From IMG/VR virus record IMGVR_UViG_3300027914_001163, positions 64,001 to 128,000 of that record: 64,000 nt of DNA. One strand, given 5' to 3'. The notes beneath the pieces were generated by a model that was not told the DNA's origin, made no database searches, and worked only from the letters and a program-made list of their open reading frames with translations. Positions 33,119-60,785 of the stretch are shown here, piece after piece; the first letter of the stretch is position 1; the number at the start of each line of letters is the position of its first letter. Origin of the DNA: a virus. Lineage: Duplodnaviria; Caudoviricetes. A program made the translations under genes and the position numbers.

Positions 33119-33155
33119 CTTGCAACAGGGTAAAGATTTGAATGTTGGTTACAAT
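33119..33155 (+). repeat. solitary copy of the CRISPR repeat
   Basis: CTTGCAACAGGGTAAAGATTTGAATGTTGGTTACAAT: first 32 nt identical to the array repeat, 34/37 overall. Confidence 0.92.
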
Positions 33156-33399
33156 GGGAGGAAACGATAATGTTAAAAGGATTGTTACACGGTCTTCTGG
33201 TCGGTGCTATTATAGCACTCATTTTGACTGCGCTGTGTTGCCAGACTCAAAAAGAGAAACCATCCGGACCTTTTAAGACTGCGGAATGGAAAGACTGTTT
33301 TGAGGAATGCAAATCTTCGCTTCCAAAGAATCTGTCCATTTCAGATTTTGATAATGGCGAGATTAAAAAAATGAATCCAGATGAACTCTGTGTTCGTTT

Positions 33400-34191
33400 T
33401 TGCACACAGGCATTATATCATCGTCGGGGTATTCAGTGAGAATCATTTCAGATTTTCATGATTATTACGATAATGTTCAGTCATACGGACAGGATCGTTC
33501 TCTGGTATATTTACGAAAAGAAAAGGTGATCGAGAACTTTGACACCAGAGAACTTCCTTCCCTGGCTGAATTGTTTGAGAAATTTTCATGGCTTCATACG
33601 CATCATCTTGACAGCCTGTATAGCATCAGGCCGTGTTTAATAGGTTTCTGCGGTAAGTGGTATCCATATATTGATTTCAGTTCCGATTATGAAAAGACCG
33701 CTCACGAAACCGCTTTCAATGCGTATGATGTATTGCAGTTTTTGCAATCTCCTGAACATTTCAAGAAGGAAATGGTTGAGAATTTTCTTGAGGTTGAAAA
33801 AAAGCGCACCAAGTTTTATGGCAAGGTTCAAAGACGGAAAACTAAATATCGGCTTCATTTTACATTTGATGATCTGGATGATTTTTTCAAAAAAAACCAT
33901 ATCATAGAAAAAGAACTTGACTTTTTTTTCAGACACCGATGTCCTATTTTTATCATTGAGAGTTTGGATAAAAGAAGGATAGAATATAATTTGATTTTGC
34001 ATCCGAACCTTTTTAAGAGGAATTTTCAAAGAGAGATTGACCCTTATACCGCCTTCCAGGAATTGAGCATGTTTATCTCAGGAAGGCTTGGAGTTGGGGA
34101 GCCGGTCACTGTGAATATCAGCAACGAGGCTATGATTGAAAAGAAAGGATTCGATAAGTGGTCATTCAGAACAATGCCAACCAAAAAATGA
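33400..34191 (+). CDS. hypothetical phage protein (start probably near 33437)
   Basis: Long ORF. Confidence 0.6.
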   Translation: MHTGIISSSGYSVRIISDFHDYYDNVQSYGQDRSLVYLRKEKVIENFDTRELPSLAELFEKFSWLHTHHLDSLYSIRPCLIGFCGKWYPYIDFSSDYEKTAHETAFNAYDVLQFLQSPEHFKKEMVENFLEVEKKRTKFYGKVQRRKTKYRLHFTFDDLDDFFKKNHIIEKELDFFFRHRCPIFIIESLDKRRIEYNLILHPNLFKRNFQREIDPYTAFQELSMFISGRLGVGEPVTVNISNEAMIEKKGFDKWSFRTMPTKK

Positions 34192-35020
34192 GAAATGCGA
34201 ACACGAAGATGGTGGTTGGTGCAGGAATGAGAAAAGGTGCAAGCATCGTCATGTAGCATATTCGATTGGACCTCTCGGTGGTATCAGTCGTAAAAATAAA
34301 GGATACGTTTGTGAGTTGGCACTATGAAATATTTAATTTTTACAATGATGATCGGTTTGATGCTTGGCGGTTGTTATCCTGAACAAAGAGACGTTCAGGA
34401 TGAAGTATATACGTTGGCAAAAAAGGCGTATGAGTTGGGTTACAGACAATCATGCGCTGACAATAATAAACCCTGCGATCAATATGAAGAGCGTCAGGCA
34501 AAATTTAATACAATGATGGAGCGATAATATGATAGCGTTAGTAATTGGTTCGTTTATTCTTGCAATTATCTGTGCCGGTCCTTTTATTGAGAAAGACAGC
34601 CCGATTATGAATTACATGTCTGTGCCGGTGTTTTTGATTGTGCTTGGTTTTGGTGTTCTGATGTCAACAGGAGGATGCTATCAAGCCAGCATTGTTGAGG
34701 TTGAAGAAATGAAGGCTCAACAGATCAACATACTATCCAATTACCGGACACTGGCGCAACAACTGAATCAAGTCGCCGTGGTGAAAACAAATGGTGATAA
34801 AATCCTGGTTGATCTTCCAAACGCATACCAGAGCACCAACGCTTCCAAAGCTGCTGAAAGTTGGATTGATTCTGCCAATAAATTTAATAAAGATTTGGCT
34901 CATGAGATCGGTATTCGTAAAATGAATTGGATGGGGAAACTGTGGTATGGTTGGCGGTGTCCTCTTGATAAGGAATTACGGTACATTGAAATAAAAGAAC
35001 TGGTTGAAAGAAAATAACAT

Positions 35021-35092
35021 TGAGCGGTAGCCAAGCGGTAAGGCATCGGGTTTTGGTCTCGACATCCGAGGGTTCGAATCCTTCCCGCTCAG
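35021..35092 (+). tRNA. tRNA-Gln(TTG)
   Basis: Cloverleaf; TGAGCGG/CCGCTCA acceptor stem; TTCGAAT T-loop; no CCA. Confidence 0.9.
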
Positions 35093-35647
35093 ATCGGAAA
35101 AGAAATGAATATAGATTTTAAAAAATTATCACAGTCAGAAGGATACAAGAGGTTAAAGGCTTCGGTATTGTATGATTGCTATGAGCGTGGTAAGAAGAAG
35201 TGTTTTCGAACAACCGGATGCGATAAAAAACCTGGATGTTCTCATCGGTATTGCGATCAGTTCAAGTATGTCATTGACTTGGTTCGAAAATGCGCACATC
35301 AGACAGGGCTTGATCCTGTTGATATATTGAATGGTTGGGAGAAAGACAGGACGTGTTGGTATATGAATTTTTACCAAGCATGTTATGAGAAAAGATTATT
35401 TAGTCTATCGGTAGAAAACGCCGTGGCCTTCAATGGCGCAGTAGACACATCTGTAAGTTCAACACTCGACGGAGATATGGTTCAGAAGTAGGAGCGTTGT
35501 CTGAAAATGAACCGGAGGCTCTTGATTGGTGTGGGGATTCTGGCAAACAACGATAACTCCAGAGTTGAAACATCTTGAGTAGACTCGTCCGAAGACCTGG
35601 ACGGCTAACGTGATGACAGTTTGTTGAACAAGGACTCGATGTTATGT

Positions 35648-35680
35648 CTTGCAACAGGGTTAAGATTTTTTTGTTGTAAT
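35648..35680 (+). repeat. degenerate solitary CRISPR repeat copy
   Basis: CTTGCAACAGGGTTAAGATTT (20/21 to repeat nt 1-21), then shortened, ending GTTGTAAT. Confidence 0.75.
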
Positions 35681-35711
35681 AATGGTTCATCGGAATAAAA
35701 AACCATTTTAA

Positions 35712-35786
35712 CGGGGTGTAGCGCAGTCCGGTCAGCGCACTTGATTTGGGTTCAAGTTGTCGAGAGTTCGAATCTCTCCACCCCGA
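35712..35786 (+). tRNA. tRNA-Pro(TGG)
   Basis: CGGGGTG/CACCCCG acceptor; CTTGA-TTTGGGT-TCAAG anticodon arm. Confidence 0.9.
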
Positions 35787-35795
35787 AATTGTTTT

Positions 35796-35867
35796 GCGGA
35801 TGTAACCCAACGGTAGGGCATATGATTTCCAATCATATCATTGTGCGTTCGAGTCGCATCATCCGCT
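35796..35867 (+). tRNA. tRNA-Gly(TCC)
   Basis: GCGGATG/CATCCGC acceptor; TATGA-TTTCCAA-TCATA anticodon arm. Confidence 0.88.
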
Positions 35868-35870
35868 CAT

Positions 35871-35943
35871 GGGGTTGTCGTCTAATTGGTTAGGACAGCG
35901 GTTTTTCGAACCGTCAACCAGAGTTCAAATCTCTGCAACCCTA
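35871..35943 (+). tRNA. tRNA-Glu(TTC)
   Basis: GGGGTTG/CAACCCT acceptor; GCGGT-TTTTCGA-ACCGT anticodon arm. Confidence 0.88.
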
Positions 35944-35954
35944 ATGCTTAGAAT

Positions 35955-36345
35955 ATGCACCGGAAGCCGGAGAGTTGTAATTCCAAAGGAAGCCGTTTGA
36001 TCAACGGTGGATGGGACTCGGTGATGGAGCCGGTATTACAGTTTTAAGCCGTATACGATAGTGTCTACCTTCGACGTGGAAGGCTCGACTTGGAGAGAGT
36101 AAACATTCCGATCCAAGGAGCCAACGTTGGCTGCCGGTGGGTCTCGATTGGAGAACCAGACTCGGTAAGTGCGTTGGACATCGGAAAAGGGTATCCAGGT
36201 TTAAAATTAATGCAGGGATTGAGGCGACTCCCGGTTCTTTTAGATTATAAGAAAATCTCCAATTACTGAACCGAAAGCCTTTACCTCAACGTAGTAAATT
36301 GAGGATTATCGTATCCAGGTTTTTGTGAGGCTTCCTGGTAAATAA
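35955..36345 (+). ncRNA. candidate large structured ncRNA (unassigned family)
   Basis: No convincing ORF, end-to-end pairing, multiple nested helices and a pseudoknot-like pairing. Confidence 0.6.
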
Positions 36346-36358
36346 AAAGCCAAGGTAT

Positions 36359-36435
36359 AGCGGGGTAGACCAGTTGGTAAGTCGGCTGGCTCATAACCAG
36401 TGTCAATATCGTCGGTTCGAACCCGACCCCCGCAA
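36359..36435 (+). tRNA. tRNA-Met(CAT), possibly initiator-like
   Basis: CAT anticodon; 1:72 mismatch; GCGGGG/CCCCGC. Confidence 0.85.
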
Positions 36436-36455
36436 ATTTTAAAAAGAGATAGTAA

Positions 36456-37064
36456 ATGAACCGTAGCGAAGCAGGAAAATTAGGAGCATTAAAATCTAAA
36501 CCTATATTGCAAAAACGTTTTGATAATATCAAAAAACAATATTATCATAATCCAAAAGTTTGTAAAAGTTGTAAAACAATTTTGCAATATCATCAACGAG
36601 ATAATACATTTTGTACTAAATCTTGTGCTGCTCAATTTTATAATGTTAAAAGAGGAAAAAAAACTAAAACTGAAAAGTATTGTTTAAATTGTGGAAAATT
36701 AGTAAAAGTTAAATATTGTAATAATACTTGTCGGGCTGAATACAAATGGAAACAATTATGTATTGAAATAGAAAATAAGAAACAATTTCCTTATAACAAA
36801 AACACTAATGATACAAACAGAAAAATAGTTAAAAAATATTTAACAGAAAAATTTGGAGATAAGTGTTTTATTTGTGGAATTACTAAATGGAATAATAAAG
36901 ATTTAATTAAGATTATAGATCATATTGACGGCGATACGCATAATCATAAAGTAGAAAATTTTAGATTGGTATGTAGTAATTGTGATAGTCAATTGGAAAC
37001 TTATAAATCTAAAAATAAAAAAGGAAAACGTTCTTGGAGAAAAAAATACGCCTCTGTAGTTTAA
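36456..37064 (+). CDS. HNH homing endonuclease with zinc-binding repeats
   Basis: CxxC repeats; IDHIDGDTHNHKVENFRLVCSNC; very AT-rich. Confidence 0.88.
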   Translation: MNRSEAGKLGALKSKPILQKRFDNIKKQYYHNPKVCKSCKTILQYHQRDNTFCTKSCAAQFYNVKRGKKTKTEKYCLNCGKLVKVKYCNNTCRAEYKWKQLCIEIENKKQFPYNKNTNDTNRKIVKKYLTEKFGDKCFICGITKWNNKDLIKIIDHIDGDTHNHKVENFRLVCSNCDSQLETYKSKNKKGKRSWRKKYASVV

Positions 37065-37122
37065 ATGGATAGAACGACTGATTTGTAATCAGTAAATTTC
37101 GGATCGTACCCGAATGGAGGCT
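37050..37122 (+). tRNA. tRNA-Thr(TGT)
   Basis: GCCTCTG/TGGAGGC acceptor; ACTGA-TTTGTAA-TCAGT anticodon arm; atypical ATCGTAC T-loop. Confidence 0.8.
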
Positions 37123-37126
37123 ATAT

Positions 37127-37200
37127 TCTGCGGTAGCTCAGTTGGTAGTAGCAATTGACTGTTAATCAATGGGTCGGAAGTTCGAATCTTCCCCGCAGAG
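37127..37200 (+). tRNA. tRNA-Asn(GTT)
   Basis: TCTGCGG/CCGCAGA acceptor; ATTGA-CTGTTAA-TCAAT anticodon arm. Confidence 0.92.
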
Positions 37201-37205
37201 CATAA

Positions 37206-37278
37206 AGGGGTTTGCGAGTAGTGGTAGCCGGTCGGTCTCCAAAACCGTACAGCACGGGTTCGAATCCTGTAGCCCCTG
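37206..37278 (+). tRNA. tRNA-Trp(CCA)
   Basis: AGGGGTT/AGCCCCT acceptor; CGGT-CTCCAAA-ACCG anticodon arm. Confidence 0.82.
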
Positions 37279-56698: not shown

Positions 56699-57118
56699 AT
56701 GAACGAAAACCAATTGACATTTGATGAAGAGAAATTAAAAAAACTTTCTGGACTCTTGGAAGAAAGTATTTGCATTTATCGCAGTGACAGGGACCGTGCT
56801 ATTGCTCATTATGACGATCTCAAAAGACAACTGGCCAATATTCTCAATGGTCCATTTGAGATGAGCGAAGAAGCGGCACTGGAACGGGAATGTAATAAAG
56901 CGTTGAAGTTGTGTTTTGAATCTTCAAAGCGTTTGGATGATGTTATCAAGCATGTAACCGATGTCATCATGACTCAGTTAAATAACGAAACCAGGGAGAA
57001 GGTGGCAAAACAACTGGCTGGAAGTGGCGGTGGTTTCCCAAGCAAACCGGTGAATTTTAACCAGTTGAAAAATAGCAGGGGCGGTCAACCTGAAATTGAG
57101 TATGATGAAGAAGATTAA
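56699..57118 (+). CDS. hypothetical helical protein
   Basis: ORF directly upstream of the array. Confidence 0.6.
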   Translation: MNENQLTFDEEKLKKLSGLLEESICIYRSDRDRAIAHYDDLKRQLANILNGPFEMSEEAALERECNKALKLCFESSKRLDDVIKHVTDVIMTQLNNETREKVAKQLAGSGGGFPSKPVNFNQLKNSRGGQPEIEYDEED

Positions 57119-57129
57119 ATAGTTGTTGA

Positions 57130-57378
57130 CTTATTATAGGGTAAATATTTGAATGTTGGTTATAACCTTGAAAGGATTTACAAGCCTGGATTCAAATATC
57201 TTGCAACAGGGTAAAGATTTGAATGTTGGTTGTAACTATTCGCTATTCGCGATTCGCGAATAGCGATAAACTTGCAACAGGGTAAAGATTTGAATGTTGG
57301 TTGTAACTATACAGGAGAACTCACTCGATGAAAAAAACAGTCTTGCAACAGGGTAAAGATTTGAATGTTGGTTGTAAC
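57130..57378 (+). CRISPR. CRISPR array: 4 x 37-nt repeats, 3 spacers (33, 34, 34 nt)
   Basis: CTTGCAACAGGGTAAAGATTTGAATGTTGGTTGTAAC at 57200, 57271, 57342; degenerate copy at 57130. Confidence 0.95.
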
Positions 57379-57410
57379 TGTCATTTTTTTTAATAAAATT
57401 GAATTTTTTA

Positions 57411-57440
57411 TTGACAAAAATGGCTTTAATAAACTATTAT
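57411..57440 (+). promoter_or_regulatory. promoter for tracr-omegaRNA/iscB
   Basis: TTGACA-18nt-TATTAT. Confidence 0.6.
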
Positions 57441-57446
57441 CTTTAC

Positions 57447-57780
57447 AGTTGTTCCGCTAACCATAAGCGGTGTTCGAAAACCGGTAGGTTAGCGGAAGTT
57501 GCAACCAACATTCAAATCTTTACCCTGTCCTCTACGGCAAGAGGATATTCCAAAGTAACATTTGGGAAAATGCAGATTAGGGGGCTTAAAAGAAATTTTA
57601 TGCAGAAGTTTGAAGCAAGCGTTAAAGTAACACCAGTGGATACTCCTCTCGTCCACTGCTCTGTAAATTCTCATGTAAGAAAAGAGAATGATCTTTGCCG
57701 TTGTCATGAGAATATAGTACCTACTTCAAACAACCCCGAAGAGGCTCTACCTCAACATAAAGAGGAGCAGAAGTCGAGAC
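57447..57780 (+). ncRNA. omegaRNA-type scaffold carrying a CRISPR anti-repeat (tracrRNA-like)
   Basis: 5' hairpin 57452-57497; anti-repeat 57498-57528; GATTAGGGGGC; helices GTTTGAAG/CTTCAAAC, CAGTGGA/TCCACTG, TTCTCATG/CATGAGAA; directly upstream of iscB. Confidence 0.85.
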
Positions 57781-57788
57781 TATCTGCT

Positions 57789-58982
57789 ATGGTTTATGTA
57801 ATCAATATGCGTGGTAATCCGTTGATGCCATGCAGTTGTCGAAAGGCAAGAGTGCTTTTAAAAAACAAAAAAGCAAAAGTAGCACAACGGTCTCCATTTA
57901 CAATTCAACTGCTTTATGCAACAGGAGAAACCACGGAACCAATAACGTTAGGATTTGATCCGGGTTATGCTCATGATGGTTTTTCAGCCAGGACTGCAAC
58001 TTGTGAATTAATTTCAGGAGAGTTGGAACACGAAAACGGAATGTCCAAGAGGCTACAAGAACGTAGTATGTATCGTCGCAACAGAAGAAGCAGATTGTGG
58101 CATAGACCTCCCCGATGGAGAAATAGAACAGCATCGAAAAAAGAAGGATGGCTTCCTCCTTCTACACAACGCAGATTAAATACTCATGCATCTTTGATTA
58201 AAAAAATAACAAGAATATTACCTGTTACTGATCTTATTATTGAAATAGCAAAATTCGATATTCAAAAAATTGAAAATCCAGAAATTGAAGGGATGCAATA
58301 TCAACAAGGTTCCCTATATCAATATAGAAATAGGATTGCATTTTTAATAGCACGAGAGCATGGCAAGTGTCAGTATTGCCATAAAGAATATAATAAAAAC
58401 GATGGTTGGAGACTGCACCATATATGGGGAAAATCCAAAGATCGTTCTCAAGATTGGGCATTGGTTCACGAATCATGCCACAAAAAATTGCACTTGAATA
58501 AAGAAGAAGGTATTTTACAAAAAGCAAAAAGCAAAAGTTATAAAAATGCAACATATATGAATGTTGTTCGCAACCGAATAAAACAATTATATCCAATGGC
58601 TCAATTCACATATGGCTATATCACATTTCAAAATAGAGTAGATTTACAATTACCGAAAACACATTATAATGACGCTTTTGTAATATCGGGCGGGACAAAT
58701 CAAGAGCGTATCAAACCTTTTAATATTATACAAAAGAAAAAAAACAATCGCTGTCTTCAAATAAATAGGCAAGGATACAAACCAAGTATAAGAAGAAAAA
58801 GATATAAAATTCAACCTAAAGATAGTGTGTGGATTGAAGGCAAGGAATATATTTCCAAAGGATGCCAATCTTACGGAAAATATGTATGTGTTATTGGATA
58901 TAAAAAGAAAGTAATATCTATAGATAAAATTGAAAAATATTTTAATGCTAAAACATTAAGATGGGATTTTTTATCCGCTTAA
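57789..58982 (+). CDS. iscB: IscB RNA-guided endonuclease (about 397 aa)
   Basis: MVYV..PLMP, RuvC-I GFDPG, Arg-rich bridge helix, WLPPS, RuvC-II IEIAKFD, HNH CQYC..HHI..CH, RuvC-III THYNDAF. Confidence 0.95.
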   Translation: MVYVINMRGNPLMPCSCRKARVLLKNKKAKVAQRSPFTIQLLYATGETTEPITLGFDPGYAHDGFSARTATCELISGELEHENGMSKRLQERSMYRRNRRSRLWHRPPRWRNRTASKKEGWLPPSTQRRLNTHASLIKKITRILPVTDLIIEIAKFDIQKIENPEIEGMQYQQGSLYQYRNRIAFLIAREHGKCQYCHKEYNKNDGWRLHHIWGKSKDRSQDWALVHESCHKKLHLNKEEGILQKAKSKSYKNATYMNVVRNRIKQLYPMAQFTYGYITFQNRVDLQLPKTHYNDAFVISGGTNQERIKPFNIIQKKKNNRCLQINRQGYKPSIRRKRYKIQPKDSVWIEGKEYISKGCQSYGKYVCVIGYKKKVISIDKIEKYFNAKTLRWDFLSA

Positions 58983-60785
58983 AAAGTCTTCCATTTCCTT
59001 TTCAGAGACGGCGTAGCCCATAGCAGCCATTTGTTCAATCATCTCACGTTTTTGGTCATCAAGTTCGCTCATATCGAAACGGTCTTCCCAATATTTCAAC
59101 GTTCGCTTCTTCATGGCCTGTGCTTCTTTTTCAGCATCAGTCAGTTCACGGTTGTCCATCTCATTGCCGACCAGGATTCCAATCGGTGACTCGGCAATAT
59201 ATCGATTGGTTGAAACAGCCCATCCGTAATTCACCAGGTAACAGAACTGCGCCAGCGAGAGCACGATGTCATCATGTCCGCTACCGAGAGCCTTGATTTT
59301 TCCATTCTTGGAATATCCAAAGTTTCGAAGTTCATTGATTAATCTCTGGCTCTTAATAAGCAACTCGTGATTGCTGAGAATGGTCTGCATATACACAATG
59401 GCTTGACTCCTGGTGGTGATACCCATAGGAAAACCGGCCTTGTAGACATGCTTTGAATGTTTATGGAAATAAAAGTTCTCGTAGTAGATAACCTTCTCAA
59501 AGTATTCAACCACTCCAACACCCAAGCCGTTGTTCTCAATTGAAAGCTTGGCATTGTTGAAATATTTCGCCACAACCTCTATGATCTTTTTGTATGTTTC
59601 AAGATCGACCTTTTCGTTCCTGAATTCTGCCGCCTGTTCCATTGTTTCCAGATTGATGACGATAAAGGCAGAGGAGCAATCACCAACACCCTTTGCAACG
59701 TCAGCAGTAATGCAGTATTCAGTATCAGGCTTGACATCTTCCCAAAACCACAAGCCACGAATGTAATGGAATGCAGGATCAAATTCATCTCTGAGTTGGC
59801 CGACATCGTTCAAATCCTTTATATAGCCCTCATCGTCAACGTCAGCAGGATACAGGAAGTCACACCGTATAGGATGGACTGCTTTGAGTTCCTTGAGCAC
59901 ATAGGCCGGTAATAGAGCGTTATCACTGTCAATAGGCTCTTCTCCCAAGACCTCAATGGCGTATCGCTTTGGTCCCAAGATGTCCAACTGCTCCTTGTGC
60001 CATGCTTCGTTCTGATAAAACGGTATGTCTCCGGTTTCAACTTCAATCAGTTCATATTCGCCATCATCTGGATTTTCCCTGGCGGTATTCAGGAGCCTGA
60101 TATAATCATTGTCGATAATACCATCATGCGGATAGGTTGATATGAAGAATATCTGAGAGAACAACGCATCGGGAGAGTTCTTTATCAGTGCGCCGGTACT
60201 GGTTGCCGGTACAACAGCAGATAATACGTCCGGCATGTTCTTATAAAAAGCGCACTCATCCAGGACGACCATACTGGCAGCTTCACCACGGACAGGATTC
60301 GAGGAGTGAGCCAGACTGGTAATCTGAGAGTTGTTATGCTCGAAGACCATGCACGTTGCCGCATCCTGCTTGGTTTTTTGCTTCATCCATATTGGCAAGT
60401 GATTGTACATGAATTTCAATTTCTTCAGCATGGAAGAACTCTCTCGCTGTGTTAACGATAGGAAATAGATGTCCTGGTTATCAAAGAAGAGCGCACGATA
60501 CAGCGCATAAGCCATCGTTGTGGTTGATGCTGATACCTGGCGCATCTTCTTGAATATGACGTAGCGTTTGCGCAGAAAGTTGCTTGTCGCTTCCTGTTGC
60601 CATTGATACGCAAAGTCTTTCATATATAATTTACCACCGGCTTGCATTGACGGCATGTAAATGTAATTCATGAAGAAATAGTTGAATCCGCTGTAGTCGC
60701 AGACATTGGTGATTTTATTGATCTCATCTCCGATCTGCGCCATCGTGAGTTTTGACATCGGATGTACGAATTTGGTGCTTGCCAT
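58971..60785 (-). CDS. large terminase subunit (T4 gp17-like)
   Basis: KMRQ, VLDECAF, ISTY, ADVAKG, IENN, HDDIV. Confidence 0.9.
   Translation of the reverse strand: MASTKFVHPMSKLTMAQIGDEINKITNVCDYSGFNYFFMNYIYMPSMQAGGKLYMKDFAYQWQQEATSNFLRKRYVIFKKMRQVSASTTTMAYALYRALFFDNQDIYFLSLTQRESSSMLKKLKFMYNHLPIWMKQKTKQDAATCMVFEHNNSQITSLAHSSNPVRGEAASMVVLDECAFYKNMPDVLSAVVPATSTGALIKNSPDALFSQIFFISTYPHDGIIDNDYIRLLNTARENPDDGEYELIEVETGDIPFYQNEAWHKEQLDILGPKRYAIEVLGEEPIDSDNALLPAYVLKELKAVHPIRCDFLYPADVDDEGYIKDLNDVGQLRDEFDPAFHYIRGLWFWEDVKPDTEYCITADVAKGVGDCSSAFIVINLETMEQAAEFRNEKVDLETYKKIIEVVAKYFNNAKLSIENNGLGVGVVEYFEKVIYYENFYFHKHSKHVYKAGFPMGITTRSQAIVYMQTILSNHELLIKSQRLINELRNFGYSKNGKIKALGSGHDDIVLSLAQFCYLVNYGWAVSTNRYIAESPIGILVGNEMDNRELTDAEKEAQAMKKRTLKYWEDRFDMSELDDQKREMIEQMAAMGYAVSEKEMEDFLSG

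Follow-up and report, generated by a model that had tools for sequence, protein, structure and literature searches.

A CRISPR-associated IscB in a T4-like phage, with a mini-array, an anti-repeat-bearing omegaRNA and a natural protospacer in another phage

The nuclease IscB is the ancestor of Cas9. Here we describe an iscB locus in a 64,000-nt stretch of phage DNA (the window), which spans positions 64001 to 128000 of the 191,433-bp record IMGVR_UViG_3300027914_001163, estimated to be 83% complete. The carrier is a large T4-like phage found in wastewater and digester metagenomes, and its distantly T4-like gene for the terminase large subunit (TerL) adjoins iscB. Upstream of iscB lie a CRISPR mini-array and an omegaRNA with an anti-repeat at its 5' end, and one of the three spacers matches a phage that occurs in the same samples. 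The locus is probably, we concluded, a CRISPR-associated IscB system that its phage carrier directs at a competitor phage.

A repeat search found four repeats and three spacers with a period of 70–71 nt (repeat starts at 57130, 57200, 57271 and 57342; Table 1). The repeat, CTTGCAACAGGGTAAAGATTTGAATGTTGGTTGTAAC, is 37 nt long, and the last three copies are identical. An anti-repeat of 32 nt, 97% complementary to repeat nt 7–38, stands 118 nt downstream of the last repeat. With as many as 10 mismatches allowed, the 191-kb record contains no other minus-sense copy, so it is not a chance match. Its one non-Watson-Crick position sets U57375 opposite G57501, a wobble in plus-strand RNA and an A-C pair on the minus strand. 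The sequence behind the anti-repeat aligns to the omegaRNAs of relatives, and the HEARO covariance model (RF02033), proposed as a check by an earlier reading made from the letters of the window alone (the sequence-only reading), matched it over the full model with 60.9 bits (E 2.6e-11), under the gathering score. This is the only omegaRNA counted in the record. The same earlier reading had described the four-repeat array, the anti-repeat, the plus-strand wobble, a T-tract, a TTGACA/TATTAT site, two short hairpins, TGCAG at 57571, the omegaRNA core and an intact 397-aa iscB; all of these are present, with the refinements that the first repeat is degenerate and that the anti-repeat is slightly longer than had been reported.

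The open reading frame behind the omegaRNA is predicted to encode an IscB with conserved catalytic residues. Pfam recognized the RRXRR domain (194.5 bits, E 1.8e-57) and HNH (21.6 bits), and residues 10–15 form an NPLMPC motif. Residues D57, E152, H210/H211, H292 and D295 are invariant across 29 relatives and align to OgeuIscB. The best matches among solved structures were IscB entries (E 3e-39, with the RuvC and HNH blocks aligned) and not Cas9, and the REC lobe is missing from the 397-aa protein. The iscB frame is open from 57399 (527 aa), through the anti-repeat and the omegaRNA, an accident due to the lack of stop codons in the omegaRNA. A public gene call of the same protein (P0002, 520 aa) is likewise overextended, and many relatives carry false N-terminal "MQKL..." stretches that are translated omegaRNA.

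To place the omegaRNA among its relatives, we compared the loci of 69 viral and 80 metagenomic homologues; homologues of the window IscB number in the thousands, and the nearest are 55–62% identical to it. In the closest relatives the layout runs guide, GTCAACT-ACC, hairpin 1, hairpin 2, AGTTGAT-TAGRGGGC, and the cis pairing of GTCAACT and AGTTGAT makes up the first stem (P1), or adaptor stem. Of the 84 relatives with a TAGRGRG motif, 72 have such a cis P1, contiguous and 7–8 bp long, and the nearest relatives (L071–L080, 55–62% identity) have it too and are array-less. In the window, the core and both hairpins are retained, whereas the 3' strand is TGCAGAT and its cis pairing amounts to 5 bp at most. 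The first six bases of the repeat, CTTGCA, fit TGCAG and sit directly 3' of each spacer, which is the place that the 5' strand of P1 takes after the guide in an ordinary omegaRNA. TGCAGAT pairs with this CTTGCA; whether the final bases of the spacer join in varies with the spacer.

Folding predictions gave the same picture. Each of the three spacer-repeat units, when cofolded with 57447–57790, formed a 32-bp duplex and 4–8 P1 pairs; the gain in free energy was −39 to −42 kcal/mol per unit. Degenerate repeat 1 lost the P1 pairs in the cofold, being unable to form the P1 analogue because its 5' end is CTTATT. The predicted fold inserts the repeat:anti-repeat helix, with an open end, between the 5' strand of P1 and hairpin 1, as in the design already published for CRISPR-associated IscBs. 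Both the cofolds and the comparison with relatives support the suggestion of the sequence-only reading that the adaptor stem is split, one strand lying at the 5' end of the repeat and the other in the omegaRNA.

Four independent features of the sequence agree in supporting CRISPR RNAs (crRNAs) of plus-strand polarity, with the spacer ahead of the repeat: the wobble is G-U on the plus strand only, the degenerate repeat is the one without a spacer upstream, the free 5' end of the repeat faces P1, and the perfect part of spacer 3 adjoins the repeat. Repeat 1, lacking an upstream spacer, is therefore the only dispensable copy when the array is read in this direction.

A natural target came to light for spacer 3. 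We aligned the contigs of four public runs to 56700–59300 (the uncovered parts of this alignment, and a 36-nt low-identity piece at 57386–57421, carry no meaning) and found pieces of the phage in three DNA runs, two from wastewater and one from an anaerobic digester, belonging to two studies. Each of the three also held a separate contig that matched only 57308–57341, with two differences and unrelated flanks, and a search with its flank identified two phage contigs in IMG/VR with the same protospacer. Spacer 3 and its target agree at 32 of 34 nt; the mismatches fall at positions 17 and 22 from the repeat, so that the repeat-proximal 16 nt are perfect. That 16-mer is perfect in five loci of the target phage family and has one mismatch in two more. 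The protospacer covers the ribosome-binding site and ATG of a gene for a 345-aa DUF2800/PD-(D/E)XK exonuclease, which has terminase, portal, polymerase, single-stranded DNA-binding protein (SSB) and HNH genes as neighbors. Since a crRNA from spacer 3 would have the sense of the target mRNA, it would pair with the DNA and not with that mRNA. The 3' flank of the protospacer, AAAAGCCG, is conserved within the target family, and this AAAAGCC flank is a candidate target-adjacent motif. The array itself could be told from the target because CTTGCAAC stands at the flank position there. The multiguide nuclease envisaged in the sequence-only reading is thus backed by one natural protospacer.

The target phage was seen as contigs of 5.8–38 kb (L152:2027–3064, minus strand, with its neighbors). 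Its genes include a Gp2.5-like SSB, a DNA polymerase, an HNH endonuclease and a glycosyl/methyltransferase fusion, and its terminase is at most 29% identical to that of any isolated phage.

Other searches with the array were negative. The 3'-terminal 20-mers of the spacers had no exact match in viral contigs; spacer 3 was missed because its target differs at position 17 from that end. Neither spacers 1 and 2 nor the sequences upstream of repeat 1 and of a solitary repeat described below were found in 165 kb of target-family loci. One complete genome of the target family has a 14/16 match to spacer 2, which was set aside as chance (about 0.09 expected, no extension). Matches from a blastn search of the array against phages and plasmids were at chance level (E about 1), among them a 27/31 match of spacer 2 to a cyanophage tRNA-Ala. 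We also rejected self-targeting, as the rest of the carrier genome has no match of at least 14 nt to any spacer. Unusually for a spacer, spacer 2 is almost perfectly palindromic, with 13-nt arms (TCGCTATTCGCGA-T-TCGCGAATAGCGA).

From these elements we propose the following mechanism. The mini-array would be transcribed on the plus strand, and each unit would give rise to a crRNA of the form 5'-spacer-repeat-3'. Repeat nt 7–38 would pair over 32 bp with the anti-repeat, which stands at the omegaRNA 5' end, and the CUUGCA of the repeat would pair with UGCAG just before AUUAGGGGGC, rebuilding P1 in trans and placing the 3' end of the spacer at the usual omegaRNA guide position. As happens in Cas9 systems, RNase III of the host would probably cleave the long duplex and leave a guide of ~16 nt, and IscB would use its RuvC and HNH domains to cut matching DNA next to the target-adjacent motif. 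The target would be the start of the exonuclease gene in a smaller phage from the same wastewater and digester samples.

The two RNAs may have separate starts. Between repeat 4 and the anti-repeat, TTGACA-18-TATTAT is the best promoter-like site of the region and resembles other such sites in the same phage; sites of this kind are no commoner than in shuffled sequence. As a consensus match, it is a candidate start for a separate transcript combining a trans-activating crRNA (tracrRNA) and the omegaRNA. The T8 tract ahead of it may be a weak terminator, and a terminator scan did not flag it. An activated-sludge metatranscriptome yielded a 194-nt contig that corresponds to 57548–57741, covering the scaffold only out of the 2.6 kb compared, which fits an abundant structured RNA.

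Several points weigh against a working system of this kind. The candidate motif comes from a single protospacer family, a target was found for one spacer in three, and spacer 2 is the odd near-palindrome. A shared host of carrier and target is assumed from their co-occurrence alone. The HEARO match lies below the gathering score of 83. The RNA evidence consists of one assembled contig that gives neither strand nor ends, and DNA carry-over could account for it; the promoter and terminator are consensus matches without statistical weight. Because neither adaptation genes nor RNase III were found, both spacer acquisition, which would have to proceed without cas1 and cas2, and RNA processing would need host factors. 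The searches behind this last point covered the whole 191-kb record, extending what the sequence-only reading had stated for the window: cas1 and cas2 were not found (control genomes were positive), nor was csn2 alongside them, nor a tnpA or Y1 transposase gene anywhere in it, nor a phage RNase III (the record being 83% complete).

A further copy of the repeat stands by itself far upstream of the array. A phage promoter motif immediately precedes it, and after it, at a distance of 1 nt, comes the ribosome-binding site of an open reading frame for an 89-aa membrane protein (33171–33440). In this solitary repeat, 30 pairs with the anti-repeat are kept, and a transcript started upstream of it would form the P1 analogue too. 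That the copy is conserved speaks for the importance of trans pairing with the omegaRNA. The motif, GTTGACAAATTATCATAC, occurs three times in the phage (window 33088–33105 and 42946–42963; genome 175448–175465), each copy ~17 nt ahead of a −10-like hexamer, and looks like a phage promoter family.

The origin of the arrangement was read from a tree of 144 IscBs, 14 of which have an upstream array. The array label needs at least five changes on this tree, and the window IscB falls in a well-supported clade of eight, the other seven of which are array-less. This placement implies a separate origin. Where the sequence-only reading had seen a possible intermediate between IscB and Cas9, the tree puts the protein inside an array-less IscB clade, and judged by these sequences, the locus is an analogue that converged on the Cas9 design, outside the line of descent to Cas9. 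The IscBs of the other array-bearing phage loci (L057, L059 and L060–L070) are only 31–40% identical to that of the window. The repeats of L060–L070 are 36 nt long with a 66-nt period, start with GTTTTAGAG and are Cas9-like, and in L057 (2150–2760) and L069 (2520–2800), a short anti-repeat starts within about 10–15 nt of the last repeat. A metagenomic IscB that is 50% identical, L149, has an array of four to five units (83–420) whose repeats are direct copies of the 5' end of its own omegaRNA (GTCTCATCTCGCACG...) and not complements of it; from sequence, this appears to be a different route from omegaRNA to array.

A bolder version of the story is possible, and we put it forward tentatively. 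In it, an ordinary omegaRNA would have given rise, freshly and independently, to a crRNA:tracrRNA pair, with the array-less sisters representing the "before" state. Once P1 had been split, any transcript that bears the repeat, including the solitary one, would program IscB in trans, the array would store an inherited record of a rival phage for use against it, and spacers would be gained without Cas1-Cas2.

We consider it unlikely that the RNA is instead a single precursor acting as a natural single guide, in which repeat 4 would fold on the anti-repeat in cis across a 118-nt loop, spacer 3 would be the working guide, and spacers 1 and 2 would be little used or used only after processing. When 57308–57790 was folded as one RNA, the same 37 pairs formed in cis, and the sole spacer with a target is the one nearest the omegaRNA. 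The T-tract has no strong hairpin and was not called as a terminator, and the noncoding RNA (ncRNA) of the CRISPR-associated IscB DelIscB is one RNA with spacer, repeat and anti-repeat (PMC12660989). However, an 11/12 sigma-70 site with a T-rich element and a preceding T8 stands between repeat 4 and the anti-repeat, and the gap of 118 nt compares with only about 10–15 nt in other phage CRISPR-IscB loci. Moreover, repeats 2 and 3 and the solitary repeat are perfect or nearly so in the pairing region, which only trans pairing explains.

Still less probable is a regulatory or decaying element, in which the repeats would be antisense partners or sponges that tune IscB or the solitary-repeat gene, or the array would be a relic, and the spacers would not be guides. 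The position of the solitary repeat in a 5' untranslated region, 1 nt from the ribosome-binding site, would suit such a role, as would the absence of detected adaptation genes from the carrier record, the two spacers without a target and the degenerate first repeat. A family-conserved 32/34 match to a co-occurring phage with a perfect repeat-proximal 16 nt is, however, unexpected for filler, and three identical repeats and intact catalytic residues in IscB likewise argue against decay. We can give almost no credence to ordinary OMEGA function, with the 5' leader (about 57482–57497) as a cis guide, GUUGCA (57498–57503) and UGCAG as P1 and the array irrelevant, since although the anti-repeat starts with GTTGCA and makes the same five pairs with TGCAG as the repeat does, a G+C-rich hairpin of 10 bp ties up the leader, relatives have 7–8 bp where this cis helix has 5, no tnpA or transposon context was found, and four copies of a 32-nt complement would be left unexplained. 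Capture of the array from a host CRISPR locus is unsupported, as a search of 185,579 prokaryote species genomes did not find the repeat core (three isolated 20-mer matches there fail to extend and are chance), and other viral contigs lack it too.

Table 1. Features of the phage CRISPR-IscB locus and the solitary repeat, in window coordinates
Feature	Position	Strand	Description
Solitary repeat	33119..33155	+	3 mismatches; 24 kb upstream of array
Repeat 1	57130..57166	+	Degenerate; 80% identity, 6 mismatches; 5' end CTTATT
Spacer 1	57167..57199	+	33 nt; no target found
Repeat 2	57200..57236	+	37 nt; CTTGCAAC...GGTTGTAAC
Spacer 2	57237..57270	+	34 nt; no significant target
Repeat 3	57271..57307	+	37-nt copy
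Spacer 3	57308..57341	+	34 nt; target in co-occurring phage
Repeat 4	57342..57378	+	Last repeat; serves spacer 3
T8 tract	57385..57392	+	Behind weak hairpin of repeat 4 and spacer 3 end
Promoter-like site TTGACA-18-TATTAT	57411..57440	+	11/12 consensus positions; T-rich upstream element
Leader hairpin	57453..57496	+	UUCCGCUAACC / GGUUAGCGGAA; abuts anti-repeat; absent from relatives
Anti-repeat	57497..57528	+	Against repeat nt 7–38: 31 Watson-Crick pairs and one G-U
OmegaRNA scaffold	57516..57750	+	HEARO RF02033, full-model match
Two small hairpins	57529..57544 and 57548..57567	+	Homologous to P1-enclosed hairpins of relatives
P1 3' strand TGCAGAT	57571..57577	+	AGTTGAT in relatives; TGCAG at 57571–57575
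iscB	57789..58982	+	397 aa; PLMP motif, split RuvC, RRXRR bridge helix, HNH, C-terminal domain

The DNA of the locus had no match among isolated phages, and a single-protein scan of viral contigs found nothing. For the carrier TerL, the matches were T4-like cyanophages at 26% identity. TerL searches with carrier and target phage returned distant relatives only, so that no host can be named. The window also holds a cluster of eight tRNA genes (Gln, Pro, Gly, Glu, Met, Thr, Asn and Trp) on the plus strand at 35020–37278.

To our knowledge, CRISPR-associated IscBs are few, and DelIscB is the only one to have been characterized. The sequence-only reading had left it open whether the arrangement had been reported before, and it had: according to papers that cite Altae-Tran et al. 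(Science 374:57), CRISPR-associated IscBs with a repeat and an anti-repeat-bearing ncRNA were published in 2021. DelIscB (Zhang et al.), whose ncRNA has spacers, repeats and an anti-repeat and which functions biochemically with a guide of 16 nt, was engineered for mammalian editing in 2025; its authors state that processing of the RNA into crRNA-like and tracrRNA-like parts is not known (PMC12660989). Our literature searches found no paper on a phage-borne CRISPR-IscB or its natural targets. The class is already known, and what this copy adds is a separate origin, a wide signal-bearing gap, a natural target and a solitary repeat.

The additions matter in several ways. As the nearest relatives keep an unsplit omegaRNA, the changes that would make a tracrRNA-like RNA can be read from the alignment, and the natural protospacer family supplies a guide length (16 nt) and a candidate motif (AAAAGCC) for testing. 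A large phage of lytic type would be aiming a CRISPR-IscB at another phage, and the nuclease, at 397 aa, may be supplied with more than one guide by its array. The accepted account of the descent of Cas9 from IscB is unchanged; the same solution was reached repeatedly. Should the tentative reading as an independent birth be true, the window and its sisters would form a natural before-and-after pair for the origin of a tracrRNA, and the phage would hold a compact multiguide nuclease with a known natural target.

The known CRISPR-associated IscBs are the closest counterparts. They share with this locus an IscB-size protein behind an ncRNA region of spacers, repeats, anti-repeat and scaffold and the lack of adaptation genes, and the 16-nt guide of DelIscB equals the perfect stretch of spacer 3 in length. 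The window locus differs from them in its separate origin, its nearest relatives being array-less (DelIscB was compared by its description), in its T4-like phage carrier, in the 118-nt gap with a promoter-like site and a T-tract, and in having a natural protospacer and an extra solitary repeat. DelIscB is also larger, with 457 aa versus 397 aa here. Beyond this class lie the OMEGA IscBs of IS200/IS605 elements (OgeuIscB; RF02033), which have the same protein family, omegaRNA core, pseudoknot region and two hairpins, whereas here the cis P1 is missing, an array supplies the guides and TnpA was not found.

The likeness to type II Cas9, including the compact II-D Cas9d, is one of design. In both, a spacer-then-repeat crRNA would pair with a 5' anti-repeat of the scaffold to give a long duplex of a kind that suits RNase III, the protospacer has the motif on its 3' side, and the nuclease has RuvC and HNH. 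In contrast to type II systems, the window locus is without a REC lobe, cas1, cas2 and csn2 and keeps a large omegaRNA scaffold, and its protein groups with IscB, the resemblance being convergent. The CRISPR-Cas systems of huge phages and viral mini-arrays (reviewed in PMC11656645 and PMC7099407) likewise combine a short viral array without an adaptation module with a spacer against a virus of the same habitat. Unlike in these systems, however, the window array would be served by the adjoining IscB and its own omegaRNA and not by a host or phage Cas complex.

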